64,000 bases of DNA from an uncultured Solirubrobacteraceae bacterium (GCA_964588985.1 CAZPQW010000001.1:224001-288000); one strand, 5' to 3'. Counted from the stretch's first letter, positions 47,933 to 55,730 are shown. The notes: a model not told the origin generated them from the sequence alone. Numbers and translations: made by a program.

Positions 47933-48949
47933 ATCTTCCGCCTCTCCGTCCTCGACCAGTCCCCGATCTCCCAGGGCTTCTCCGGCGCGCAGGCGCTGCG
48001 CAACACGCTCGAGTTGGCGCGCCTGACCGACCGCCTCGGCTACCACCGCTACTGGGTCGCCGAGCACCATGGCGGGCCGATGCTCGCGGGGCCGAGCCCG
48101 GAGGCGCTGATCGGGCCGATCGCGGCCGCGACGAAGCACATCAGGGTGGGCAGCGGGGGCGTGATGCTGCCGCACTACAGCCCGTTCAAGGTCGCCGAGA
48201 CGTTCAGCCTGCTCGCCGGTCTGTTCCCCGGGCGCATCGACCTCGGGCTGGGACGCGCCGCGGGTACCGACCCGCTGACCACGTACGCCCTGCAGCGCGA
48301 CAGGCGCCAGGCGACACCGGACGACTTTCCCCAACAGCTCGAGGAGCTGTTGGGCTATCTATATGACCGCCTCCCGAGTGACCACCCGTTCGCGCGGCTG
48401 GCGAAGATGCTCCCCGGTCTCCCGGAGCGTCCTGAGCCGTGGCTGTTGGGCTCCTCGCCGCAGAGCGCGCTGTGGGCCGCGGAGCTGGGACTGCCTTACG
48501 CGTTCGCGGACTTCATCAACCCGCGCGGAGCGGAGATCACGGCGCTCTACCGCGAGCGCTTCGCCGAACACGAACACGAGGGCCTGCACCCGCGTACGGC
48601 GGTGGCGGTGTGGACGATCTGCGCCGAGACCGACGAGGAGGCGCGGCGGCTGGCGGCGAGCGGGCGGATGACGTTCACGCTGCTGCGCCGCGGGCAGCTG
48701 ATCGCGGTGCCGCCGCCCGAGGAGGCGCTGCGGTTCCTCGAAGCCGACGACCGCTCCGCCGCGGGGCCGCGCTCGGAGCGACGCGCGGTCCTCGGTGCGC
48801 CGGCGACGGTGCGCGCGGAGCTCGAGGACGTGGTCGCCCGCTACGGCGCGGAGGAGGCGATCATCGTGTCGATCACCTACGACCACCTCGCGCGCATGCG
48901 CTCGTACGAGCTGCTCGCCGAGGCGTGCGGGTGCGAGTCGCGCCCATAG
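47933..48949 (+). CDS. LLM-class flavin-dependent oxidoreductase, apparent ATC start
   Basis: FRLSVLDQSP, YWVAEHH, RVGSGGVMLPHYSP, RIDLGLGRA; in-frame TAG at 47921. Confidence 0.88.
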   Translation: MFRLSVLDQSPISQGFSGAQALRNTLELARLTDRLGYHRYWVAEHHGGPMLAGPSPEALIGPIAAATKHIRVGSGGVMLPHYSPFKVAETFSLLAGLFPGRIDLGLGRAAGTDPLTTYALQRDRRQATPDDFPQQLEELLGYLYDRLPSDHPFARLAKMLPGLPERPEPWLLGSSPQSALWAAELGLPYAFADFINPRGAEITALYRERFAEHEHEGLHPRTAVAVWTICAETDEEARRLAASGRMTFTLLRRGQLIAVPPPEEALRFLEADDRSAAGPRSERRAVLGAPATVRAELEDVVARYGAEEAIIVSITYDHLARMRSYELLAEACGCESRP

Positions 48950-48956
48950 AGGGCTC

Positions 48957-49976
48957 ATGCACGCCGAGCGACTGACCGCGCAGATGCTCGCCGGGCCGCC
49001 GGCGAGCGACCCGGTGGAGGTGACACGCAGGCTGCTCGCGGTGCAGGGGCAGGACCCGCGTGGAGCGCGGCTCGCGATCCGCGCGCGGAGCACCGGCCTC
49101 TCAGCGGCGGACGTCGATCGCGCGCTCACGGAGGACCGCTCGCTGCTGATCACGTGGGTGAACCGCGGCACTCTGCATCTGCTCGCGAGCGAGGACTACC
49201 CGTGGCTGCACGAGCTCACCGCGCCGACGCTGTTCACCGCCGCCGCGAGGCGCCTCGCGCAGGAGGGTGTCACGCCGGACGCGGCCGATCGCGCGGTGGC
49301 GGCGGTCGAGAGCTCGCTGGCCGAGGAGGGGCCGCTGAGCAGGCTGCAGCTGCGCGAGCGGATCGACGCCGTGGGTGTGCGCACGGAGGGGCAGGCGCTG
49401 GTGCACTTGCTGCTGCTCGCGACGCTGCGCGGGCTGACGGTGCGCGGGCCGATTGTGGAGGGGCAGCACGCGTATGTGCTCGTGCGCGACTGGCTAGGGG
49501 AATCCGCGCCGGTCGATCGCGAGCGCGCACTCGCGGAGCTCGCCCGCAGGTATCTCGTGGGTCACGCGCCGGCCGACGAGCGCGACCTCGCGAAGTGGGC
49601 GGGCCTGCCACTGCGCGACGCGCGCGCAGGCCTCGCCGCGATCGCGTCGCAGCTGCATCAGCGCGAGGACGGGCTCGTCGAGCTCACGGGTAGCGGTGCG
49701 CCCGCACCGCTACCGCCACCGCGCCTGCTCGGGTCGTTCGAGCCGGTGCTGCTCGGATGGCGCTCGCGCGCGGCGTTGCTGGGCGCGCACGAGCAGCGGC
49801 TCGTCACGAACAACGGCATCTTCCGCCCGTTCGCGATGGTGAACGGGCGCGCGGTCGCCGTGTGGAAGCTGTCGGCTGGGAAGGTCACCCTCGAGCCCTT
49901 CGCGCGGATCGCGGCGAAGGACGAGGCGGCGCTGCAGGCGGACGCCGAGGATGTCGTCCGCTTCCTCTCCCGTTAG
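48957..49976 (+). CDS. AlkZ/YcaQ-like winged-helix DNA glycosylase (HTH_42)
   Basis: AVQGQD (QxQ/D motif), RGTLHLL, DLAKWAGL, NNGIFRP. Confidence 0.85.
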   Translation: MHAERLTAQMLAGPPASDPVEVTRRLLAVQGQDPRGARLAIRARSTGLSAADVDRALTEDRSLLITWVNRGTLHLLASEDYPWLHELTAPTLFTAAARRLAQEGVTPDAADRAVAAVESSLAEEGPLSRLQLRERIDAVGVRTEGQALVHLLLLATLRGLTVRGPIVEGQHAYVLVRDWLGESAPVDRERALAELARRYLVGHAPADERDLAKWAGLPLRDARAGLAAIASQLHQREDGLVELTGSGAPAPLPPPRLLGSFEPVLLGWRSRAALLGAHEQRLVTNNGIFRPFAMVNGRAVAVWKLSAGKVTLEPFARIAAKDEAALQADAEDVVRFLSR

Positions 49977-50521
49977 CCGGGGATCGCCACCCTCAGGATT
50001 GGGGCGCTCGTCGGGCTCGGGCTGCCACCGAGCGGCTCGGCGGTGACGAGCACGCTGCGCACGCCGCGCAGGCTGCCGGGGATCTGCACGTCGGCGCTAC
50101 CCGCTCTCGTGACCGTGAACAGCGCGTCGGTGGGTCGTGGCGGAGCGCCCGGTCGATCGAGCCAGAGCTCGTAGACCTCGCCGAACGGCGGCTCGGACAT
50201 CCGAGATATCTCCAGCTCCGTGCTGTGTCCGACACGTCGGAGCGAAACCACGGGGGCGCTTGCGCGCGCGCCGCTGTTCGGCGTTCCGGCGGGGTTTCCG
50301 CTTCTCAACGATCCGACCAGCGCAAGTGCACCGCTGAGCGCGAGCGCCGTGCAGACGAGGCCGCCCCCGGTCTGCATCGCACGCCGTCCGCGCACCGGCT
50401 TTCCCGGATCGCCATTGCCGCCGGCCGCCGCCAGTACGCGTCGACGAAGAGAGCCTGGTGCGATCACCCGCTGCGCGGGCACCTGAGCGGTGCTGCAAGA
50501 CGATCGTGTCGAGCGAAGCAT
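49973..50521 (-). CDS. RskA-like anti-sigma paralog lacking the N-terminal zinc-binding domain
   Basis: APGSLRRRVLAAA, TM helix, VYELWL...PTDALFTV...VTAEPLGGSPSPT; aligns with 54800..55519. Confidence 0.72.
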   Translation of the reverse strand: MLRSTRSSCSTAQVPAQRVIAPGSLRRRVLAAAGGNGDPGKPVRGRRAMQTGGGLVCTALALSGALALVGSLRSGNPAGTPNSGARASAPVVSLRRVGHSTELEISRMSEPPFGEVYELWLDRPGAPPRPTDALFTVTRAGSADVQIPGSLRGVRSVLVTAEPLGGSPSPTSAPILRVAIPG

Positions 50522-50530
50522 CGAGTTCCC

Positions 50531-50556
50531 TACGCACAGCGCCCCGCGGTGGATCA
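50531..50556 (-). promoter_or_regulatory. ECF promoter TGATCC-N16-CGTA (RskA paralog)
   Basis: One of four exact copies in the module. Confidence 0.8.
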
Positions 50557-50602
50557 CTCCCGCGCTCAATCGCCGGCGACGCGCGCAATTAACACTCTCG
50601 AT

Positions 50603-50628
50603 TGATCCGTATTCGCGCTGACGGCGTA
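50603..50628 (+). promoter_or_regulatory. ECF promoter TGATCC-N16-CGTA (ferritin-like operon)
   Basis: TGATCCgtattcgcgctgacggCGTA. Confidence 0.82.
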
Positions 50629-50697
50629 GTCACACCAAGCAAGGCTGACAGGGGGAGGTTTCCTCAGCCGACCTGCCAACCCCAACATGGGAGAGTC

Positions 50698-51390
50698 ATG
50701 ACTTACACGATCAACCTGGATGAGGTCGATGTTGACGGTGCGGTACGCGAGGCGGCGGACGACGTGTCGGGTGACACGCGACTGAGCTTCCTCAAGAAGG
50801 CCGGTGTCGCGGGCGGCGCGGCGATGAGCGGCGGCGCGACTCTGTCAGTGTTCGCGCCGAGCGCGTTCGCGGCAAGTCACGGTCGCCCGCCGGCGAAATT
50901 CGGTAAAGGTGACATCGGCATACTCAACTACGCGCTCACGCTCGAGTATCTCGAGGCGGCGTTCTACAACGGCGCAACCGCGGCGAACCTGCCGCTTAGC
51001 GCCCAGGCGAGCGCGTTCCTGAAGGTGGTCACCGCCGATGAGAACGCACACGTCGCGTTCCTCAAGAAGGCGCTCGGCAAAAAAGCCGTCGCGTCGCCGA
51101 AGTTCGACTTCAAAGGCTCCAACACCAACGCCGAAACGTTCATGAAGACCGCACAGGTCTTGGAGAACACGGGCGTGCACGCCTATTCGGGGCAGGCCCT
51201 CAACATCAAGTCGGCCACGTACGTCAAGGCAGCATTGTCGATCCTTACGATCGAGGCTCGCCACGCGAGCGTGATCGGGCTGCTGAACGACCCGACGGGC
51301 AAGGAAATCGCACCCGACGGCCCGTTCGACACACCGCTCACGGCGTCGAAGGTGCTCGCCGCGGTGAAGGCCACCGGCTTCGTCGTCTGA
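50698..51390 (+). CDS. Secreted ferritin-like (Ferritin_2 / Rds1-type) protein 1
   Basis: TRLSFLKK signal, AFA cleavage site; LNYALTLEYLE, ENAH, LEN, EARH. Confidence 0.9.
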   Translation: MTYTINLDEVDVDGAVREAADDVSGDTRLSFLKKAGVAGGAAMSGGATLSVFAPSAFAASHGRPPAKFGKGDIGILNYALTLEYLEAAFYNGATAANLPLSAQASAFLKVVTADENAHVAFLKKALGKKAVASPKFDFKGSNTNAETFMKTAQVLENTGVHAYSGQALNIKSATYVKAALSILTIEARHASVIGLLNDPTGKEIAPDGPFDTPLTASKVLAAVKATGFVV

Positions 51391-51434
51391 GTGCACGTGC
51401 GATTCCCGACAAACACGACGTGGAGGTAGTGAAG

Positions 51435-52124
51435 ATGTCAAGTGCAACCAGTGAGGACACGGCTCCGCAGCCGGCTGGGATCGTCGAGCGACTCGTGCGC
51501 GACGATCTCGACCGAAAGCGGTTCCTGAAGGTGGTCGGAAGCGCAGGCGCGGCGAGCTTCGGCGCGTTCGTGATGGCGGCGTGCGGCAGTTCCAGCAAGA
51601 CCGCCTCGACGGCAGCGGCGCCGACGACGACGTCGACCGCCACGACCGGCGGTGGCGGTGACATCGCGATCCTCAACTACGCGCTCACGCTCGAGTACCT
51701 CGAGACCGCGTTCTACGAGAAGGTGATCGCGGCGGAACTGTTCAGCGGCAAGGTCGGAGGTCTGCTCGAGGACTTCGGCCGTCAGGAGGCATCGCACGTG
51801 GTCGCGCTGAAAGCGGCTGTCAGCAAGCTCGGAGGCACGCCGGCCACGAAGCCGAACGCGAAGTTCCCGATCACGAGCGCCACACAGGTGGCCGAGCTCG
51901 CCTACACCGTCGAGAATCTCGGCGCGTCGGCGTATCTCGGGCAGGCGGCGAACATCCAGAGTCCCGAGGTCCTGGCCTCGGCGCTCGCGATCCACTCCGT
52001 CGAGGCGCGCCACGCGGCGACCCTCGGCACGCTGGTCAAGAAGTCGGTCTCTCCGGACGGGGCGTTCGCCAAGCCGGCTGACATGTCAACTGTGCTGGCG
52101 GCCGTCAAGCCGTTCCTGGCCTGA
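51435..52124 (+). CDS. Ferritin-like lipoprotein 2
   Basis: GGAGG RBS; DRKRFLK signal, MAAC lipobox, Thr/Ala linker; LNYALTLEYLE, EASH, VEN, EARH. Confidence 0.9.
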   Translation: MSSATSEDTAPQPAGIVERLVRDDLDRKRFLKVVGSAGAASFGAFVMAACGSSSKTASTAAAPTTTSTATTGGGGDIAILNYALTLEYLETAFYEKVIAAELFSGKVGGLLEDFGRQEASHVVALKAAVSKLGGTPATKPNAKFPITSATQVAELAYTVENLGASAYLGQAANIQSPEVLASALAIHSVEARHAATLGTLVKKSVSPDGAFAKPADMSTVLAAVKPFLA

Positions 52125-52152
52125 TCGCTGCTGGAAAAGGAGCACGAAAACG

Positions 52153-52809
52153 ATGTCCGACAAACAACTCACACATTCGAGCCGCGCTGCGCTCGCCAAT
52201 CCCGAGCTGGCCTCGCTGGAGGTGCACGGCATGACGCGCGGGAGCTTCATCCTGCGTGGCGCGCTCGCAGCGGGAGCGTTCTACGGAACCACGGCGGTGA
52301 CGCCGTTCGTCTCACAGGCGCTCGCCGAAACCGGTGGGGGTGACGTTGACATCCTCAACTTCGCGCTCACCCTCGAGTACCTCGAGGCCGACTTCTACAC
52401 GGTCAAGGGGAGGTCGCTGAAACTCAGCGGGCAGGCGAAGGCCTACGCGCAGCAGTTCGGCGAAGAGGAGGCAGAGCACGTCACGGCGCTGATCGCCGCG
52501 ATCAAACAGCTGGGCGGCACTGCGGTGAAGAAACCGCAGTTCGTGTTTCCGGCGAGCAGCGAGAGCTCGTTTCTGGCGCTCGCCTCGGTGCTGGAGAACA
52601 CCGGAGTGGGCGCCTACAACGGCGCTGCTCCCTCGCTTCAGAGCAAGCAGGTGCTTGCGGCTGCCGGCGGGATCGTGCAGATCGAGGCTCGTCACGCGGC
52701 GGCGATCGACCTGCTGATCGGCAAGAGCCCGACGCCGACCGAAGGGTTCGACACGCCGCTCACCAAGGCGCAGGTGCTCGCCAAGGCGGGGCCGCTGATC
52801 AAGGCCTAG
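52153..52809 (+). CDS. Secreted ferritin-like protein 3
   Basis: AAGGAG RBS; TRGSFIL signal, ALA site; LNFALTLEYLE, EAEH, LEN, EARH. Confidence 0.9.
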   Translation: MSDKQLTHSSRAALANPELASLEVHGMTRGSFILRGALAAGAFYGTTAVTPFVSQALAETGGGDVDILNFALTLEYLEADFYTVKGRSLKLSGQAKAYAQQFGEEEAEHVTALIAAIKQLGGTAVKKPQFVFPASSESSFLALASVLENTGVGAYNGAAPSLQSKQVLAAAGGIVQIEARHAAAIDLLIGKSPTPTEGFDTPLTKAQVLAKAGPLIKA

Positions 52810-52836
52810 CAAGTGAAGCAGTGGAGGGGTCGCGGG

Positions 52837-52862
52837 TGATCCGCCGGCGGCCCCTCCGCGTA
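52837..52862 (+). promoter_or_regulatory. ECF promoter TGATCC-N16-CGTA (tatAC), embedded in a hairpin
   Basis: TGATCCgccggcggcccctccgCGTA. Confidence 0.8.
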
Positions 52863-52900
52863 ATACCAACCAGAGTCAATCTCAGGAGGCAACACCAATC

Positions 52901-53119
52901 ATGGGTCTCGACAATCCAATCCACATCGCATTTCTGCTGATCCTGCTGCTGCTCGTGTTCGGCGCCAAGCGCCTGCCGGAGATGGGCAAATCGCTCGGCA
53001 CCGGAATGCGCGGCTTCAAGGACGCGCTCAGCGGTGAGAGCGAGCCGGCGCCGCAGATCGCACACGAGCCGCAGGCAGTCGCTGTGGCTCCTGTTCCCGC
53101 CGAGAAGATCGCCGCCTGA
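52901..53119 (+). CDS. tatA: Twin-arginine translocase TatA
   Basis: LLVFGAKRLPEMGKSLGTGMRGFK; AGGAGG RBS. Confidence 0.95.
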   Translation: MGLDNPIHIAFLLILLLLVFGAKRLPEMGKSLGTGMRGFKDALSGESEPAPQIAHEPQAVAVAPVPAEKIAA

Positions 53120-53121
53120 TC

Positions 53122-54093
53122 ATGGCGGTTGCCGTCGGCAGGATCGGGCACGAAGATCGGGTCAGCCTGGTCGACCATCTGCAGGAGCTGCGCGGCCGTC
53201 TGATCATCTCGCTGGTCGCGGTAGCGGTGACGTTCGCGCTGTGCATGTGGCAGAACCACGCGCTGTTGAACATCATCAACGAGCCGCTCTCGCACGAGAC
53301 GCAAAAGCAGGTGAAGGCGGGCAACGGGCCGCTCGGCGCGACGTACACCGTCCAACAGAACGCGCGTGCGCTCGCCACCGAGCTGCAGGTGGTGGTGGGC
53401 GTGCTGGGGCGGCCCGGCAGCGGCGCCTCGCCCGCGGCCCGCGCAGCACTGGCGCCGGTCGCACCGCAGCTGCAGCGCCAGATCGCGAGTCTCTCGGCTC
53501 CGCCGCAGGGCAACAAGCCGGTGACGCTCGGGATCGGCGAGCCGTTCACCACGACGATCGGCATCGCGCTGATCTTCGCGTTGATCCTCGCGCTCCCCGT
53601 GATCCTGTACGAGCTGTACGGATTCCTGCTGCCGGCTTTCAGTCCCGAGCAGCGCAGCGTGACGACGCCCCTGATGCTGGCGATCCCGTTCCTGTTCGTG
53701 GCGGGTGTGCTGTTCGGGTACTTCGTGGTGCTCCCGGCGGCGGTGCGCTTCTTTCAGAACTTCAACAGCGGCCAGTTCAACGTGCTGGTGCAGGCCAACC
53801 AGTACTACCACTTCGCCGCGGTGACACTGCTGGCGATGGGACTCGTCTTCCAGGTTCCCGTCGGCATTCTCGCGGCCACTCGCGCGGGAGTCGTGACGAC
53901 GCGCCAGCTGCGCCACAACCGCCGCTATGCGATCCTCGCGTGCGGCGCGGTGGCGGCGTTCCTCCCCGGCGATGCGGTCACACTCGTCCTCGAGACGGTT
54001 CCGCTGTACCTGCTGTTCGAGCTGAGCGTTCTGATCGCCAGGTTCATCGAGCACCGCGAAGCCCGCCGGACGGCCGCAGATGCACTCCGATGA
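53122..54093 (+). CDS. tatC: Twin-arginine translocase TatC (variant)
   Basis: SLVDHLQELRGRL, EPF, FLLPAFSPEQR, LFVAGVLFGYFVVLP, PGD, PLYLLFELS. Confidence 0.93.
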   Translation: MAVAVGRIGHEDRVSLVDHLQELRGRLIISLVAVAVTFALCMWQNHALLNIINEPLSHETQKQVKAGNGPLGATYTVQQNARALATELQVVVGVLGRPGSGASPAARAALAPVAPQLQRQIASLSAPPQGNKPVTLGIGEPFTTTIGIALIFALILALPVILYELYGFLLPAFSPEQRSVTTPLMLAIPFLFVAGVLFGYFVVLPAAVRFFQNFNSGQFNVLVQANQYYHFAAVTLLAMGLVFQVPVGILAATRAGVVTTRQLRHNRRYAILACGAVAAFLPGDAVTLVLETVPLYLLFELSVLIARFIEHREARRTAADALR

Positions 54094-54147
54094 CCGCGAC
54101 CGCCGGCTCCGCTGGCATCGGTGGGAGGATCCTCGCGCGTGGATGAG

Positions 54148-54173
54148 TGATCCAAACGCGGGTATCTGCCGTA
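54148..54173 (+). promoter_or_regulatory. ECF promoter TGATCC-N16-CGTA (sigma/anti-sigma autoregulation)
   Basis: TGATCCaaacgcgggtatctgcCGTA. Confidence 0.82.
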
Positions 54174-54185
54174 ACCATGACGAGC

Positions 54186-54803
54186 ATGTTCAATCCCTTG
54201 CGTCCAGCTGCTGGTGGAGGAGATTCGGTGGAGCGGCTGCGCGTGCTCGCGGACGAGGAGCTCATGCAGCTCGTTTACAGGAGCCGAGCGGACGCGTTCG
54301 AGGTCATCTATGACCGTCATGCCGACGCCGCCTTCTCGCTCGCCCTGCGCATCTGCGGCCAGCGTGCGCTTGCCGAGGATGTCGTGCAGGAGGCGTTCCT
54401 GTCGTTGTGGCGCAGCCAGGCGCACTACGACCGCGGCCGCGGGAGCGTGCGCACCTGGCTGCTCGGCATCGTGCACAACCGCGCGATCGACGCGTTGCGC
54501 AGACGCGCAGTGCGCGAGCGCGGGATCGTCGACGAAGAGGGACTTGAGGAGCGAGTCGCCTCGCCCGAGCGCACAGACCTGGAGTTCGCGCGCCGCGAGG
54601 AGGCGCGCCAGGTCCGCGACGCGCTCGAGCAACTGCCCGGGGAGCAGAGCCGGGTGATCGAGCTCGCTTACTTCGGCGGTCTCACACACGTCCAGATCGC
54701 GTCGATGCTCGACACGCCGGTGGGAACGATCAAGGGCCGCATGCGTCTCGGTCTTTCGAAGATGCGCATCACGCTCGGCGACCCGGCGGAGGCGGCGCGA
54801 TGA
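54186..54803 (+). CDS. SigK-like ECF sigma factor
   Basis: AEDVVQEAFL, WLLGIVHNRAID, ELAYFGGLTHVQIA..GTIKGRMRLGL; start uncertain (ATG 54177/54186 or GTG 54228 with GGAGGAG). Confidence 0.92.
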   Translation: MFNPLRPAAGGGDSVERLRVLADEELMQLVYRSRADAFEVIYDRHADAAFSLALRICGQRALAEDVVQEAFLSLWRSQAHYDRGRGSVRTWLLGIVHNRAIDALRRRAVRERGIVDEEGLEERVASPERTDLEFARREEARQVRDALEQLPGEQSRVIELAYFGGLTHVQIASMLDTPVGTIKGRMRLGLSKMRITLGDPAEAAR

Positions 54804-55519
54804 GCCCCGACGAGATCGACATCCACATGGACGGCTGCGGCGTGGACGCCGCGCCATACGTGCTCGGATCGCTCACCGACCAGGAGGTCGAGACGTTCAA
54901 GGCCCACCTCGCGACGTGCGCGGTCTGCCGCGAGGAAGTGGCCGCGCTGCAGACGATCGTGTCGACGCTGCCCGCCGCAGCCCCCCAGGTGCAGGCGCCC
55001 ACGGAGCTCAAGCAGAGGGTGCTCGCCACCGTGCGACAGGAGGTCAGCCTGCACGGGGGCCCGGCCACATCAGGCGGAGCAAGGACCGGACGCAAGCCGT
55101 CACGGTCGTGGCTCGGATGGCGCCCGGCGCTCGCCGGTGTCGGCGTGGCGGCGGTCGTCGCGGTGGTTCTCGCGATTGCGCTTGCTCCGGGAGGAGGCGG
55201 CGGCGCTACGCGCACGATTCAGGCCGAAGTGCTCGCCCCGCGCGCGAGCGCGACGTTGCGGGTGAGCGACGGTCACGCCGAACTGAACATCGCCCGCATG
55301 CCGCAGACGACGCCCGGCCGCGTGTATGAGGTGTGGATTCAGCGCAGCGGACCGCCGCAGCCCACGAACGCGCTGTTCACCGTCAGCCGCGCAGGCGACG
55401 CCACCGTCGGCGTGCCCGGAGCGATCGCCGGCGTGAAGGTGGTCATGGTCACCTCCGAGCCGCGAGGCGGCAGCGCCGTCCCTACGCGCTCGCCTGTGAT
55501 CGTCGCGCACGTCAGCTGA
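54800..55519 (+). CDS. RskA-like anti-sigma factor with ZAS motif
   Basis: APYVLGSL...HLATCAVC, TM helix, VYEVW, VTSEPRGGSAVPT. Confidence 0.9.
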   Translation: MSPDEIDIHMDGCGVDAAPYVLGSLTDQEVETFKAHLATCAVCREEVAALQTIVSTLPAAAPQVQAPTELKQRVLATVRQEVSLHGGPATSGGARTGRKPSRSWLGWRPALAGVGVAAVVAVVLAIALAPGGGGGATRTIQAEVLAPRASATLRVSDGHAELNIARMPQTTPGRVYEVWIQRSGPPQPTNALFTVSRAGDATVGVPGAIAGVKVVMVTSEPRGGSAVPTRSPVIVAHVS

Positions 55520-55730
55520 CAGCGGTCACGAGCAGCTCCTCATCGCCCACGCGCACCGTGTCGCCGCGAGCGAGCTGGCGCCCGCGTCTGTCCTCGCGCT
55601 CGCCGTTGACCCACACGGGCTCGGTCGCGAGCAGCGCCTTGGCCTCGCTGCCGCTGTCGATCAGTCCGGCGAGCTTGAGCAGCTGACCGAGCCGGATCTT
55701 CTCCTCCCTGATCGGGATCTCGCGAGCCAT
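55512..55730 (-). CDS. S4-domain RNA-binding protein (YaaA/YbcJ-like)
   Basis: IRLGQLLKLAGLIDSGSEAK, VNGEREDRRGRQL. Confidence 0.9.
   Translation of the reverse strand: MAREIPIREEKIRLGQLLKLAGLIDSGSEAKALLATEPVWVNGEREDRRGRQLARGDTVRVGDEELLVTAVS

Follow-up and report, generated by a model that had tools for sequence, protein, structure and literature searches.

How would three ferritin-like proteins be exported if the Tat translocase encoded beside them has a changed signal-binding site and their own signal peptides lack the second arginine? The question is raised by positions 49973-55519 of a 64 kb window (the whole stretch of DNA analysed) from a soil actinobacterium of the Solirubrobacterales. 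ORFs, Pfam and NCBIfam together identify three tandem PF13668 paralogs, tatA-tatC, an ECF sigma gene with an RskA-type anti-sigma gene, and a divergent gene with an RskA_C domain only, which confirms the gene set listed in an earlier note on this DNA. We give about an even chance to the reading that this is an autoregulated stress ECF regulon, whose own remodelled TatAC would export ferritin-like proteins with single-arginine signals, among them a predicted heterodimer of Fer2 and Fer3 with a lipid anchor. What is new here is the replacement of Glu103 (E. coli numbering) in Fer-linked TatC, paired with cargo signals without the second arginine.

Gene order, promoters and the sigma/anti-sigma pair

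On the plus strand, ORFs and Pfam identify fer1 (50698..51390, an exported PF13668 ferritin-like protein), fer2 (51435..52124, a PF13668 lipoprotein with the lipobox VMAAC) and fer3 (52153..52809, an exported PF13668 protein). Upstream of this operon is an exact match to the motif TGATCC-N16-CGTA (TGATCC-N16-CGTAGT, 50603..50628, plus strand). Exact matches also precede tatA-tatC (TGATCC-N16-CGTAAT, 52837..52862) and sigma-rskA (TGATCC-N16-CGTAAC, 54148..54173) on the plus strand and the RskA_C-only gene on the minus strand (TGATCC-N16-CGTAGG, 50531..50556). The window holds these four exact matches, each 5' of one transcription unit, and the whole 3.41 Mb genome holds eight on both strands, of which the four outside the window are apparently intragenic. 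Across 80 related loci (1.42 Mb) we found 76 exact matches, and 56 of them are directly 5' of Fer2 (25), TatA (16), sigma (9) or Fer1 (6). The earlier observation that every transcription unit carries the same promoter motif is thus borne out by four exact sites and by conservation in relatives. A distantly related family of the phylum likewise has the motif between its sigma gene and the PF13668 pair, and the link between sigma and the PF13668 pair, with the same motif, extends to other Actinomycetota families. The shared motif supports ECF control of every unit, and sigma-rskA would be autoregulated through its own promoter, with induction by the sigma factor.

Between fer3 and tatA is a strong GC hairpin (52821..52859, plus strand; -36.4 kcal/mol, z -4.6, without a U-tract), within which the tatA promoter has its -35 element; the hairpin may be a terminator or attenuator. 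The sigma ORF (54147..54803, plus strand) encodes a SigK-like ECF sigma factor with regions 2 and 4. A start at 54147 would place the sigma promoter inside the ORF, therefore the true start is probably the ATG at 54177 or 54186. The anti-sigma gene (54800..55519, plus strand) shares its first 4 nt with the sigma gene, stop codon included. Its position directly after sigma and its product, with a zf-HC2 domain (H-x3-C-x2-C; PF13490, 24.6 bits), a transmembrane segment and an RskA_C domain (PF10099, 42.5 bits), place it in the RskA family (NF052375, 109.4 bits, cut-off 100).

The sigma factor had previously been named SigK, an assignment that does not hold in the strict sense (ECF19). The SigK model NF007228 gives 135.6 bits, below its cut-off of 226, and the best NCBIfam model, PRK12519, gives 151 bits, also below its cut-off (222). 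The protein carries a single Cys, unlike SigK, for which a Cys pair is described (PMC7509140, PMC7826278), namely the redox pair Cys133/Cys183 in Mycobacterium tuberculosis. The SigK-RskA regulon of M. tuberculosis (mpt70/mpt83) is similar in having an ECF sigma followed by an RskA-family anti-sigma (zf-HC2 and RskA_C) and in being small, with a secreted protein and a lipoprotein paralog as targets; these targets have fasciclin domains there, whereas ferritin-like proteins and a Tat system take their place here. According to PMC7509140, Actinobacteria share conserved SigK-RskA binding sites.

The divergent gene (49973..50521 or 49973..50569, minus strand) encodes a membrane protein with an Arg-rich N-tail, one hydrophobic segment and an RskA_C domain (PF10099, 42.2 bits, residues 100-191). 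It had been taken for a second RskA, which is right for the RskA_C domain, the only match (again residues 100-191), and wrong for the anti-sigma domain: Pfam, NCBIfam and the sequence itself revealed no zf-HC2/anti-sigma domain and no H-x3-C-x2-C motif in the 49973..50569 protein, which aligns to positions 50-217 alone of the NCBIfam anti-sigma model. Candidate starts are the ATG at 50521, the mechanical TTG at 50569 and an alternative ATG at 50377. The ATG at 50521 is only 9 nt past the -10 element, therefore the mRNA may be leaderless. In the mechanism that we propose, an envelope or redox signal would free the SigK-like sigma from the RskA-family zinc-finger anti-sigma, and the freed sigma would fire the four TGATCC-N16-CGTA promoters, which would drive fer1-fer2-fer3, tatA-tatC, sigma-rskA and the RskA_C-only membrane protein.

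The ferritin-like proteins and their signal peptides

Fer1, Fer2 and Fer3 each match PF13668 (E 1e-38 to 1e-40, 130-138 bits). The E / ExxH / E / ExxH ligand set, reported earlier as intact, is invariant in 23/23 aligned paralogs and orthologs (E75, E106/H109, E148 and E178/H181 in Fer3 numbering). The predicted Fer3 model (mean pLDDT 82, above 90 in the four-helix bundle) has 8w9k, 8wai and 8kce as its best PDB fold matches, and RvY_06210 is nearest among solved proteins in both sequence (phmmer E 7e-14) and fold (Foldseek E 7e-8, 29% identity). Profile score, fold and ligands place the proteins in PF13668 and the FeMP type. In this family, the tardigrade RvFeMP-1, with a Zn/Mg site, and DRB0118 of Deinococcus radiodurans are weak metabolite phosphatases, and the activity is reported for RvFeMP-1, RvFeMP-2 and DRB0118 only, according to the account in PMC11616004. 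The description of Ferritin_2 proteins as having no established biochemistry is therefore outdated, and the label di-iron is an assumption; the closest solved and assayed relatives are RvFeMP-1 (Zn/Mg) and DRB0118. We propose that the Fer proteins would be ferritin-like proteins with a dinuclear metal site, of the same type as DRB0118 and RvFeMP, whose folding, and probably metal loading, would take place in the cytoplasm; their catalytic role would most likely be that of a stress-protective surface hydrolase or oxidoreductase.

Fer2 starts at the ATG at 51435, 8 nt downstream of GGAGG (the mechanical ORF begins at GTG 51420). A lipobox is present in every Fer2 with a readable N-terminus (71 of 80, then 7 of the remaining 9), so that the surface anchoring proposed for the proteins is upheld for this one paralog. 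Fer2 is encoded directly 5' of Fer3 in 80/80 loci. A model of the Fer2-Fer3 complex reaches a median ipSAE of 0.94 against 0.15 for the best control, with three runs sharing at least 98% of contacts and partner pLDDT of at least 93; the ipSAE mark was benchmarked on solved complexes, of which 58/80 reach it, and on mismatched pairs, of which 2/110 do. The score may partly echo the RvFeMP-1 helix-4 homodimer, a solved structure that the predictor could have learnt, and it does not tell hetero- from homodimers. Of the hetero-oligomer suggested for all three proteins, the Fer2-Fer3 pair is retained, as a predicted heterodimer from structure modelling. Fer2 and Fer3 would pair through helix 4, the lipid anchor of Fer2 would tether the dimer to the membrane, and Fer1 would act separately.

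DRB0118 and RvFeMP-1 ("Tar-fer related") belong to the same Pfam family and keep the E and E-x-x-H ligands, and the family is described as dimerising through helix 4, the interface of the Fer2-Fer3 model. The architecture of the Fer proteins matches clade 2, without an IgG-like domain. DRB0118 and RvFeMP-1 differ in that the present operon has three paralogs, one of them lipid-anchored. Here the full E/ExxH/E/ExxH set is present, and the ECF regulation and Tat export route of the locus are absent from the DRB0118/RvFeMP-1 account, as far as that account goes (PMC11616004).

Closer inspection of the signal peptides showed that Fer1 has a conserved N-terminal element followed by GDT-R-L-S-F-L-K-K, with a single Arg and cleavage between AFA and A. 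The Fer2 motif is D-R-K-R-F-L-K, with R-K where R-R is expected, and Fer3 has T-R-G-S-F-I-L-R, again with a single Arg and with cleavage between ALA and E. No Fer signal of the window has two consecutive arginines. The three paralog groups share one aligned Arg without exception; conserved along with this first Arg are the S/T-or-D cap and F-L-(K), and the n-regions are long and conserved. Among relatives, GDTR is followed by a non-basic residue in all 28 Fer1 orthologs found (30 loci probed), and the residue after the Arg of Fer3 is non-basic and non-Ile in 77 of 79 parsed sequences (S36, A19, E10, G6, Q4, H2). The c-region of Fer3 contains Arg or Lys in 38/79, and its mean h-region hydropathy is 1.1. 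In more distant lineages Fer2 has the canonical S-R-R, which marks the family as Tat cargo. These features are indicative of Tat-like signals without the second arginine. The lipoprotein assignment of Fer2 (VMAAC) stands, and the plain SPase I signals assigned to the other two are better described as Tat-like.

Could the Fer proteins instead be exported by Sec, with tatAC serving other cargo and the linkage reflecting shared regulation only? The missing twin arginine in all three window signals would fit this, as would the genomes with a TatA-sigma-RskA-TatC module without a PF13668 neighbour (G022) or a tatAC pair alone (G024). We nevertheless consider it very improbable, given the canonical S-R-R-x-F of Fer2 orthologs, the conservation of the rest of the consensus (S/T in front of the Arg and F-L-K behind it), and the long n-regions, low h-region hydropathy and frequently basic c-region; moreover, in the complete genome of Conexibacter sp. 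DBS9H8, an unlinked Fer2 retains the regulon promoter.

A second Tat system

Under the reading that we favour, the co-induced TatA-TatC would export the three Fer proteins. The window tatA (52901..53119, plus strand, 72 aa) matches PF02416 with 54.6 bits (cut-off 21) and TIGR01411 with 53.4 bits, just below the cut-off of 53.9; with it, the genome has three TatA-family genes. The window tatA ends 2 nt before tatC (53122..54093, plus strand), which matches PF00902 with 173.2 bits (cut-off 25.1, model positions 1-208) and TIGR00945 with 161 bits (cut-off 132.7). A check on whether this tatC is the sole copy and lacks conserved linkage identified a second tatC, and the linkage is kept in relatives. 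The housekeeping copy is on another contig (G000:C13:35247-36077, 191 bits), adjacent to polyprenyl synthase and cytochrome bc genes. Two TatCs are present in 13/41 related genomes, and the second is beside PF13668 genes in 10 of these 13. Among the 60 loci anchored on Fer3 that extend 4 kb or more in both directions, TatC is found within 5 kb of Fer3 in 24, TatA in 32 and sigma with RskA in 29, and the linkage is conserved across Solirubrobacterales. The housekeeping tatC elsewhere, the linkage to cargo and the shared motif, which points to co-regulation, mark the window pair as a putative dedicated Tat system, and the earlier proposal of a private Tat route gains from both the second tatC and the conserved tat-ferritin linkage. 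We infer that the Fer proteins would be exported through this private TatAC.

The PhoD/TatAd-TatCd system of Bacillus subtilis is reportedly a dedicated minimal TatAC that is co-transcribed and induced with its adjacent cargo in the Pho regulon. It resembles the present locus in pairing a second TatC with its own TatA, without TatB, and differs in that the ECF sigma/anti-sigma pair is encoded inside the cluster here and the cargo consists of PF13668 ferritin-like proteins. A TatC without Glu103 and cargo without the second arginine also set the present system apart; we know of no Glu103-type change in TatCd. According to PMC3827258, no TatC isoforms other than TatCd and TatCy have been characterised by experiment as differing in their substrates.

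A Glu103-less TatC might also join the housekeeping TatC in an asymmetric complex with fewer signal sites and so tune Tat under stress. A 2026 review holds that Tat needs functional asymmetry and considers a possible asymmetric complex of archaeal TatC1/TatC2 (PMC13186574), and within the family, private and housekeeping TatCs have the same loop insertion and cluster together. We regard such mixing as very improbable, because the private tatC always comes with its own tatA, is co-regulated with the cargo, and keeps the remaining binding-site residues intact.

Position 103 of TatC and the cargo signals

The window protein keeps the equivalents of H12, E15, P48, F94 and P97, and has Gln at E. 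coli Glu103 (in SPEQRS). The receptor residue set (H12, E15, F94, E103) is therefore complete except at position 103: homology makes the protein a TatC, but one whose receptor site is atypical. Position 103 is Glu in 44/44 housekeeping or other TatCs and in 0/42 TatCs of the Fer-linked paralog groups, which have Q30, H6, R4, V1 and M1 and keep H12, E15, P48, F94 and P97. In a cryo-EM structure the second arginine of the signal forms a salt bridge with E103, and both binding and transport are lost in E103A (PMC13323110). Across the domains of life, F94 and E103 hardly vary according to PMC5539426. The Fer-linked TatCs are thus like E. coli TatC in H12, E15, F94 and P97, where position 103 partners the second arginine, and unlike it in that E103A and E103K are inactivating there, whereas Gln, His or Arg is maintained at 103 across whole paralog clades here. 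Also unlike E. coli, these clades pair with signals without a second arginine. Both this absence in the cargo and the loss of Glu103 in the private TatC had escaped the earlier note.

Beside a Glu103-less TatC, Fer2 has R-K in 21/21 loci, and beside a Glu103 TatC it has R-R in 4/5, counts of non-independent loci in which the co-variation is phylogenetically structured. A Glu103-less TatC also adjoins single-Arg Fer1 in nine genomes (G002, G009, G011, G051, G052, G056, G057, G105 and G190). In a tree made without the trait columns, the Glu/non-Glu label changes four times, and the starred branches force at least two changes; Glu103 was lost on more than one occasion. The AU test rejected the placement of every Glu103-less TatC in one clade (delta lnL 194.8, p 2.4e-45), for a group that was named after the tree was seen and includes one long branch (L179). 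The translocase would thus be a second, two-component Tat with a remodelled signal-binding site (Gln for Glu103), and the cargo signals would correspondingly lack the second arginine (T-R-L in Fer1, T-R-G in Fer3, R-K in Fer2). Such a specificity match between Glu103-less TatC and single-arginine signals is suggested by these sequence comparisons.

The match is not strict. Single-Arg Fer1 and Fer3 also occur in genomes in which a Glu103 TatC alone was found (G039 and G026, 96-98% complete; G008, 94%), and this cargo without a second TatC speaks against strict dependence on a private translocase. In G008, G041, G042, G058, G059 and G060, R-K Fer2 is present although the only TatC is a Glu103 one, so not every genome with this cargo needs the private TatC. 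At one locus (L099) R-K Fer2 adjoins a Glu103 TatC, and Fer3 has a single Arg even next to Glu103 TatCs.

These cases fit an ordinary Tat paralog that adds capacity when Fer2 is abundant, with R-K and R-R both tolerated, the Glu103 change being drift compensated at position 102 and without meaning for specificity, Fer3 hitchhiking on Fer2, and Fer1 using Sec or the housekeeping Tat. The Fer2-Fer3 dimer model, which passes its controls, agrees with this, as do the private Glu103 TatCs that adjoin R-R Fer pairs, where duplication alone would be useful, and the finding that in E. coli the hydrophobicity of the signal peptide can suppress E103K (PMC5539426). We consider this explanation rather unlikely, though it deserves serious weight: Glu103 is replaced throughout the paralog groups and kept in all 44 other TatCs, its loss is recurrent and coincides with R-K Fer2 or single-Arg Fer1 while Glu103 paralogs lie beside R-R cargo, and drift does not explain why a residue described as near-invariant should change repeatedly, in one direction and lastingly. 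Compensation is in turn favoured by the Glu or Asp at position 102 in 24/42 Glu103-less TatCs. At least one acidic residue is present at positions 99-103 in 35/42, and the charge at the TatC signal site may have been displaced rather than lost.

Gene content and promoter motif of the cluster

Within the interval 49973-55519, we detected eight genes using ORFs, Pfam, and NCBIfam. A gene on the minus strand with an RskA_C match (49973..50521/50569; ORF, Pfam, and NCBIfam) precedes three genes on the plus strand that encode PF13668 ferritin-like proteins (ORF and Pfam): Fer1 (50698..51390), Fer2 (51435..52124, with the lipobox VMAAC), and Fer3 (52153..52809). These are followed on the same strand by tatA (52901..53119), tatC (53122..54093), an ECF sigma factor (ORF 54147..54803), and an RskA-family anti-sigma factor (54800..55519) with the zf-HC2 motif H-x3-C-x2-C and an RskA_C domain, all four recognized by ORF, Pfam, and NCBIfam. 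Fer1 and Fer3 have AxA cleavage sites, and all three PF13668 genes of the genome fall in the cluster. The E / ExxH / E / ExxH ligand set noted earlier in these proteins is invariant in 23/23 aligned paralogs and orthologs. Two labels of the earlier note did not hold. The minus-strand gene, described as a second RskA, matched only the C-terminal domain and lacks the zinc-finger anti-sigma domain in Pfam and NCBIfam. The sigma factor does not qualify as SigK sensu stricto: it scores under the NCBIfam cut-off and contains a single Cys in place of the Cys pair.

The earlier claim that every unit carries the same promoter motif was borne out: the 64 kb window contains four exact copies of TGATCC-N16-CGTA, all of them in the cluster and each preceding one transcription unit (at 50556-50531 on the minus strand and at 50603, 52837, and 54148 on the plus strand). 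Eight exact sites are present genome-wide (3.41 Mb, both strands); those at C1:205503, C12:43795, C15:79796, and C19:21220 (contig and position) appear inside long ORFs or not before a start and were not counted as regulon members. Exact copies of the motif number 76 in 80 related loci (1.42 Mb), and 56 of these copies are directly upstream of Fer2 (25), TatA (16), the sigma gene (9), or Fer1 (6). In a distant family of the same phylum, it lies near the sigma gene and a PF13668 pair, usually between them, in 9/10 sampled loci. This conservation of the motif, from which we infer induction, is strong indirect evidence for what would be an autoregulated ECF regulon. A scan of the cluster for sigma-70 promoters and terminators returned no promoter-like sites and a single terminator-like one, located in fer3, a yield lower than that expected from shuffling.

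The promoter site of the sigma gene overlaps its mechanical ORF start, and the real start is therefore probably ATG 54177 or 54186. The mRNAs of the sigma gene and of the RskA_C-only gene may be leaderless. For both, only a few nucleotides separate the -10 element from the first in-frame ATG (54147-54190 and 50519-50531, respectively), which suggests the same.

Between fer3 and tatA (52821-52859, plus strand), we observed a GC-rich hairpin of 17 bp (-36.4 kcal/mol, z -4.6, with 0/200 shuffles as stable) that includes the tatA promoter's -35 hexamer and lacks a U-tract. This element could act on the fer transcript as a terminator or attenuator, or, as DNA, could block access to the promoter. 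On either side of the cluster lie genes for an AlkZ-like DNA glycosylase (48795-49976, plus strand; PF06224, E 1e-51) and a small S4-domain protein of the YaaA/YbcJ type (55512-55730, minus strand; PF13275), both without the motif. In Conexibacter sp. DBS9H8, a lipoprotein gene divergent from Fer2 (locus L054:8632-9228, minus strand) is preceded by TGATCC-N16-CGTA, and inspection by eye showed a cupredoxin-like C-terminal Cys-x2-His-x2-Met pattern in its product. About a dozen further loci have minus-strand motif copies at the same place, and this suggests a further regulon member with a possible copper or redox link.

A second TatC and its linkage to ferritin-like genes

Consistent with the private secretion route proposed in the earlier note, the genome encodes two TatCs, and the other, housekeeping copy (contig C13) is located beside polyprenyl synthase and cytochrome bc genes. 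Three TatA-family genes (72-97 aa) are present in the genome, and no TatB is evident among them. In both TatC copies (53122-54093 and C13:35247-36077 of the source genome), the first extracytoplasmic loop is enlarged by an insertion of about 70 residues; the Pfam match covers 831 nt in the TatCs of this family, compared with 621 nt in other families of the order.

Among the source genome and 40 relatives, 13 genomes encode two full TatCs. In 10 of these 13, the second TatC adjoins PF13668 genes, as expected from the linkage that the earlier note had pointed to (G018 is counted via a contig-end join and G033 via a weak PF13668 hit), and in the remaining three (G016, G022, and G024) it does not. 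Two less complete genomes, G010 (63%) and G011 (57%), have the linked copy only. Two genomes of the genus, G022 (locus L019) and G024 (locus L020), keep a TatAC that lacks Glu103 (E. coli TatC numbering throughout) with no strong PF13668 gene nearby; the sole PF13668 hits in these genomes are weak and located elsewhere, and in G022 sigma-RskA lies between tatA and tatC. Either this TatAC has other cargo or the Fer genes were recently lost.

Fer2 is encoded immediately upstream of Fer3 in 80/80 Fer3-anchored loci. Within 5 kb of Fer3, for the 60 of these loci that have at least 4 kb on both sides, we found sigma and RskA in 29, TatA in 32, TatC in 24, Fer1 in 10, and none of these in 17. Gene order is variable, with sigma-rskA placed between tatA and tatC in L011, L013, L014, L019, and L034. 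Conexibacter sp. DBS9H8, a cultured relative with a complete genome, has a sigma-RskA-TatA-TatC module, its TatC with Gln103, about 960 kb from Fer2-Fer3, and the unlinked Fer2 still has the promoter motif. Outside the order, PF13668 was detected at E ≤1e-15 in 22/151 sampled Actinomycetota genomes (a tally that includes the three unpublished genomes G078, G108, and G179), usually as tandem pairs. In one such family, the pair adjoins a homologous ECF sigma factor (48-54% identity) in 10/10 genomes, with an RskA-type hit beside the sigma gene in 7/10. Overall, we judge the cluster to be a real, conserved ECF regulon that would extend the theme of substrate-dedicated Tat systems. The two nearest known systems are PhoD-TatAdCd of B. 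subtilis, a cargo-linked minimal TatAC, and the mycobacterial SigK-RskA regulon.

Position 103 of TatC and the signals of the cargo

The TatCs were aligned to E. coli TatC from the annotated K-12 record. All housekeeping TatCs retain the F94..P97..E103-R-R pattern; the window TatC reads F-L-L-P-A-F-S-P-E-Q-R-S, with Gln at position 103. In the enlarged set, Glu103 is present in 44/44 housekeeping or other TatCs and in 0/42 TatCs of the Fer-linked paralog groups, which have Gln (30), His (6), Arg (4), Val (1), or Met (1) at this position and retain H12, E15, P48, F94, and P97. Glu or Asp occurs at position 102 in 24 of the 42, and at least one acidic residue within positions 99-103 in 35; the charge may therefore be displaced, not lost. 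Of the nearest 150 cluster representatives at 50% identity, position 103 is Glu in 78 and a different residue in 50, the other 22 being fragments with gaps there, so TatCs without Glu103 are common in metagenomes; source records name them plainly TatC. A pseudogene was ruled out for the private tatC by its open frame, by its other intact key residues, and by a close-relative search in which the matches listed (top 120) were all in-clade clusters of at least 79% identity, again named plain TatC.

In the portion consulted of a 2026 cryo-EM study of TatBC with MdoD, the first signal Arg is water-bound to E15 and stacked under F94, and the second forms a salt bridge with E103; E103A is described there as inactive and binding-negative (PMC13323110). 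[quoted passage not shown]

One aligned Arg is invariant across the Fer1, Fer2, and Fer3 groups. Fer1 has the motif GDT-R-[L/A/S/G/M]-x-F/L in all 28 loci with a Fer1 ortholog (30 probed). In Fer3, the residue after the Arg is Ser (36), Ala (19), Glu (10), Gly (6), Gln (4), His (2), Ile (1), or Arg (1) in the 79 loci parsed of 80, the Ile and Arg cases being possible parsing errors; the h-region is weakly hydrophobic, and the c-region contains Arg or Lys in 38/79. The Fer2 motif is D/E-R-K-[R/K]-F-L-K near the window lineage and the canonical S-R-R-[R/K]-F in more distant lineages, which marks the family as Tat cargo. Judged from these motifs, the cargo signals of the cluster appear to be Tat-like, and they lack the second arginine. 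With position 103 changed, the receptor no longer has the partner of the very residue missing from the neighboring cargo.

The cluster also carries an unexpected co-variation of receptor and signal. Fer2 adjoining a TatC without Glu103 is R-K in 21/21 loci, and Fer2 adjoining a Glu103 TatC is R-R in 4/5 (L081, L088, L104, and L165; the exception, L099, is R-K). In genomes with R-R Fer2, the TatC without Glu103, where present, adjoins a single-arginine Fer1 (G051 and G052), an arrangement also found in G002, G009, G011, G056, G057, G105, and G190. That the single-arginine signals of Fer3 track the private TatC was ruled out, as Fer3 is single-arginine everywhere, including beside Glu103 TatCs. 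Several genomes run counter to the pattern: G008 (94% complete) encodes Fer1, R-K Fer2, and Fer3, yet only one TatC, with Glu103; G026 (98% complete) and G039 (96% complete) combine single-arginine Fer1 and Fer3 and R-R Fer2 with one TatC; and G041, G042, G058, G059, and G060 have R-K Fer2 with Glu103 TatCs only. It follows that the private TatAC is an optional extra of certain lineages and that these signals do not universally require it.

In a TatC tree computed with the trait's own columns removed, the TatCs without Glu103 fall at four places, each near the housekeeping TatCs of its own lineage, and the starred branches force at least two label changes. A single clade of such TatCs was rejected by the AU test (delta lnL 194.8, p 2.4e-45), for which the group was named after the tree was seen and includes the long-branch row L179. 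Paralogs exchanging sequence by gene conversion could give the same picture as independent duplication, but the difference at position 103 would in that case still have to be kept up by selection.

A broader reading, which we put forward tentatively and consider somewhat improbable as a whole, would be a "single-arginine" Tat pathway in Actinobacteria with at least two independent origins. A duplicated, Glu103-replaced TatC would selectively take the S/T-R-(small or hydrophobic)-x-F-L-K signals of PF13668 ferritin-like proteins, forming an ECF-switched channel orthogonal to housekeeping Tat. Both the twin-arginine rule and Glu103 of TatC are regarded as close to universal; if true, a maintained and repeatedly evolved TatC without Glu103, tied to single-arginine cargo, would be a natural experiment on how Tat reads its signals and a possible route to orthogonal export channels. 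In the literature searched, we found no description of this gene set, of natural TatC paralogs without Glu103 (including work on TatC2), or of PF13668 or ferritin-like proteins joined with either ECF19 or twin-arginine export. The main text of the ECF reclassification paper contains none of the terms "ferritin", "TatC", and "twin-arginine"; its supplementary tables of conserved neighbors may list PF13668.

Fold of the ferritin-like proteins

The nearest solved protein to the cargo by sequence is the tardigrade RvY_06210 (RvFeMP-1; E 7e-14), and a comparison of folds picks out the same protein as nearest (Foldseek E 7e-8, 29% identity, TM 0.65; model pLDDT >90 in the bundle). RvFeMP-1 dimerizes through helix 4, has a dinuclear Zn/Mg site, and is weakly active as a metabolite phosphatase, and the same activity is reported for its bacterial "desiccation-related" homolog DRB0118 of Deinococcus, according to the sections consulted of PMC11616004. 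The window Fer proteins resemble the DRB0118 type, without an IgG-like domain and with the full E/ExxH/E/ExxH set. The enigmatic "desiccation-related" PF13668 proteins gain, in bacteria, a defined context of regulation and proposed export, an ECF/RskA regulon conserved in several Actinomycetota families, that can guide work on their substrates and metals. A SigK-like ECF clade gains a target set of PF13668 proteins, plus Tat in some lineages.

A model of the Fer2-Fer3 heterodimer reached a median ipSAE of 0.94 vs 0.15 for the best control; in calibration, the ipSAE mark was reached by 58/80 solved complexes and 2/110 mismatched pairs. At least 98% of contacts are shared by the three runs, partner pLDDT is ≥93, and the predicted interface is formed via helix 4 (Fer2 184-196 and Fer3 172-184). 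The model passes the controls; it cannot tell a heterodimer from a homodimer. Because a like homodimer has been solved, resemblance to it may account for the pass.

The N-terminus of Fer1 (50698-50790) contains a strongly conserved I-N-L-x-E-[IV]-D-V-D-G-A-[IV]-R-E-A ahead of the Tat-like motif. This element is common to the orthologs of several families (L011-L042 and L147-L174) and could be a chaperone or proof-reading site.
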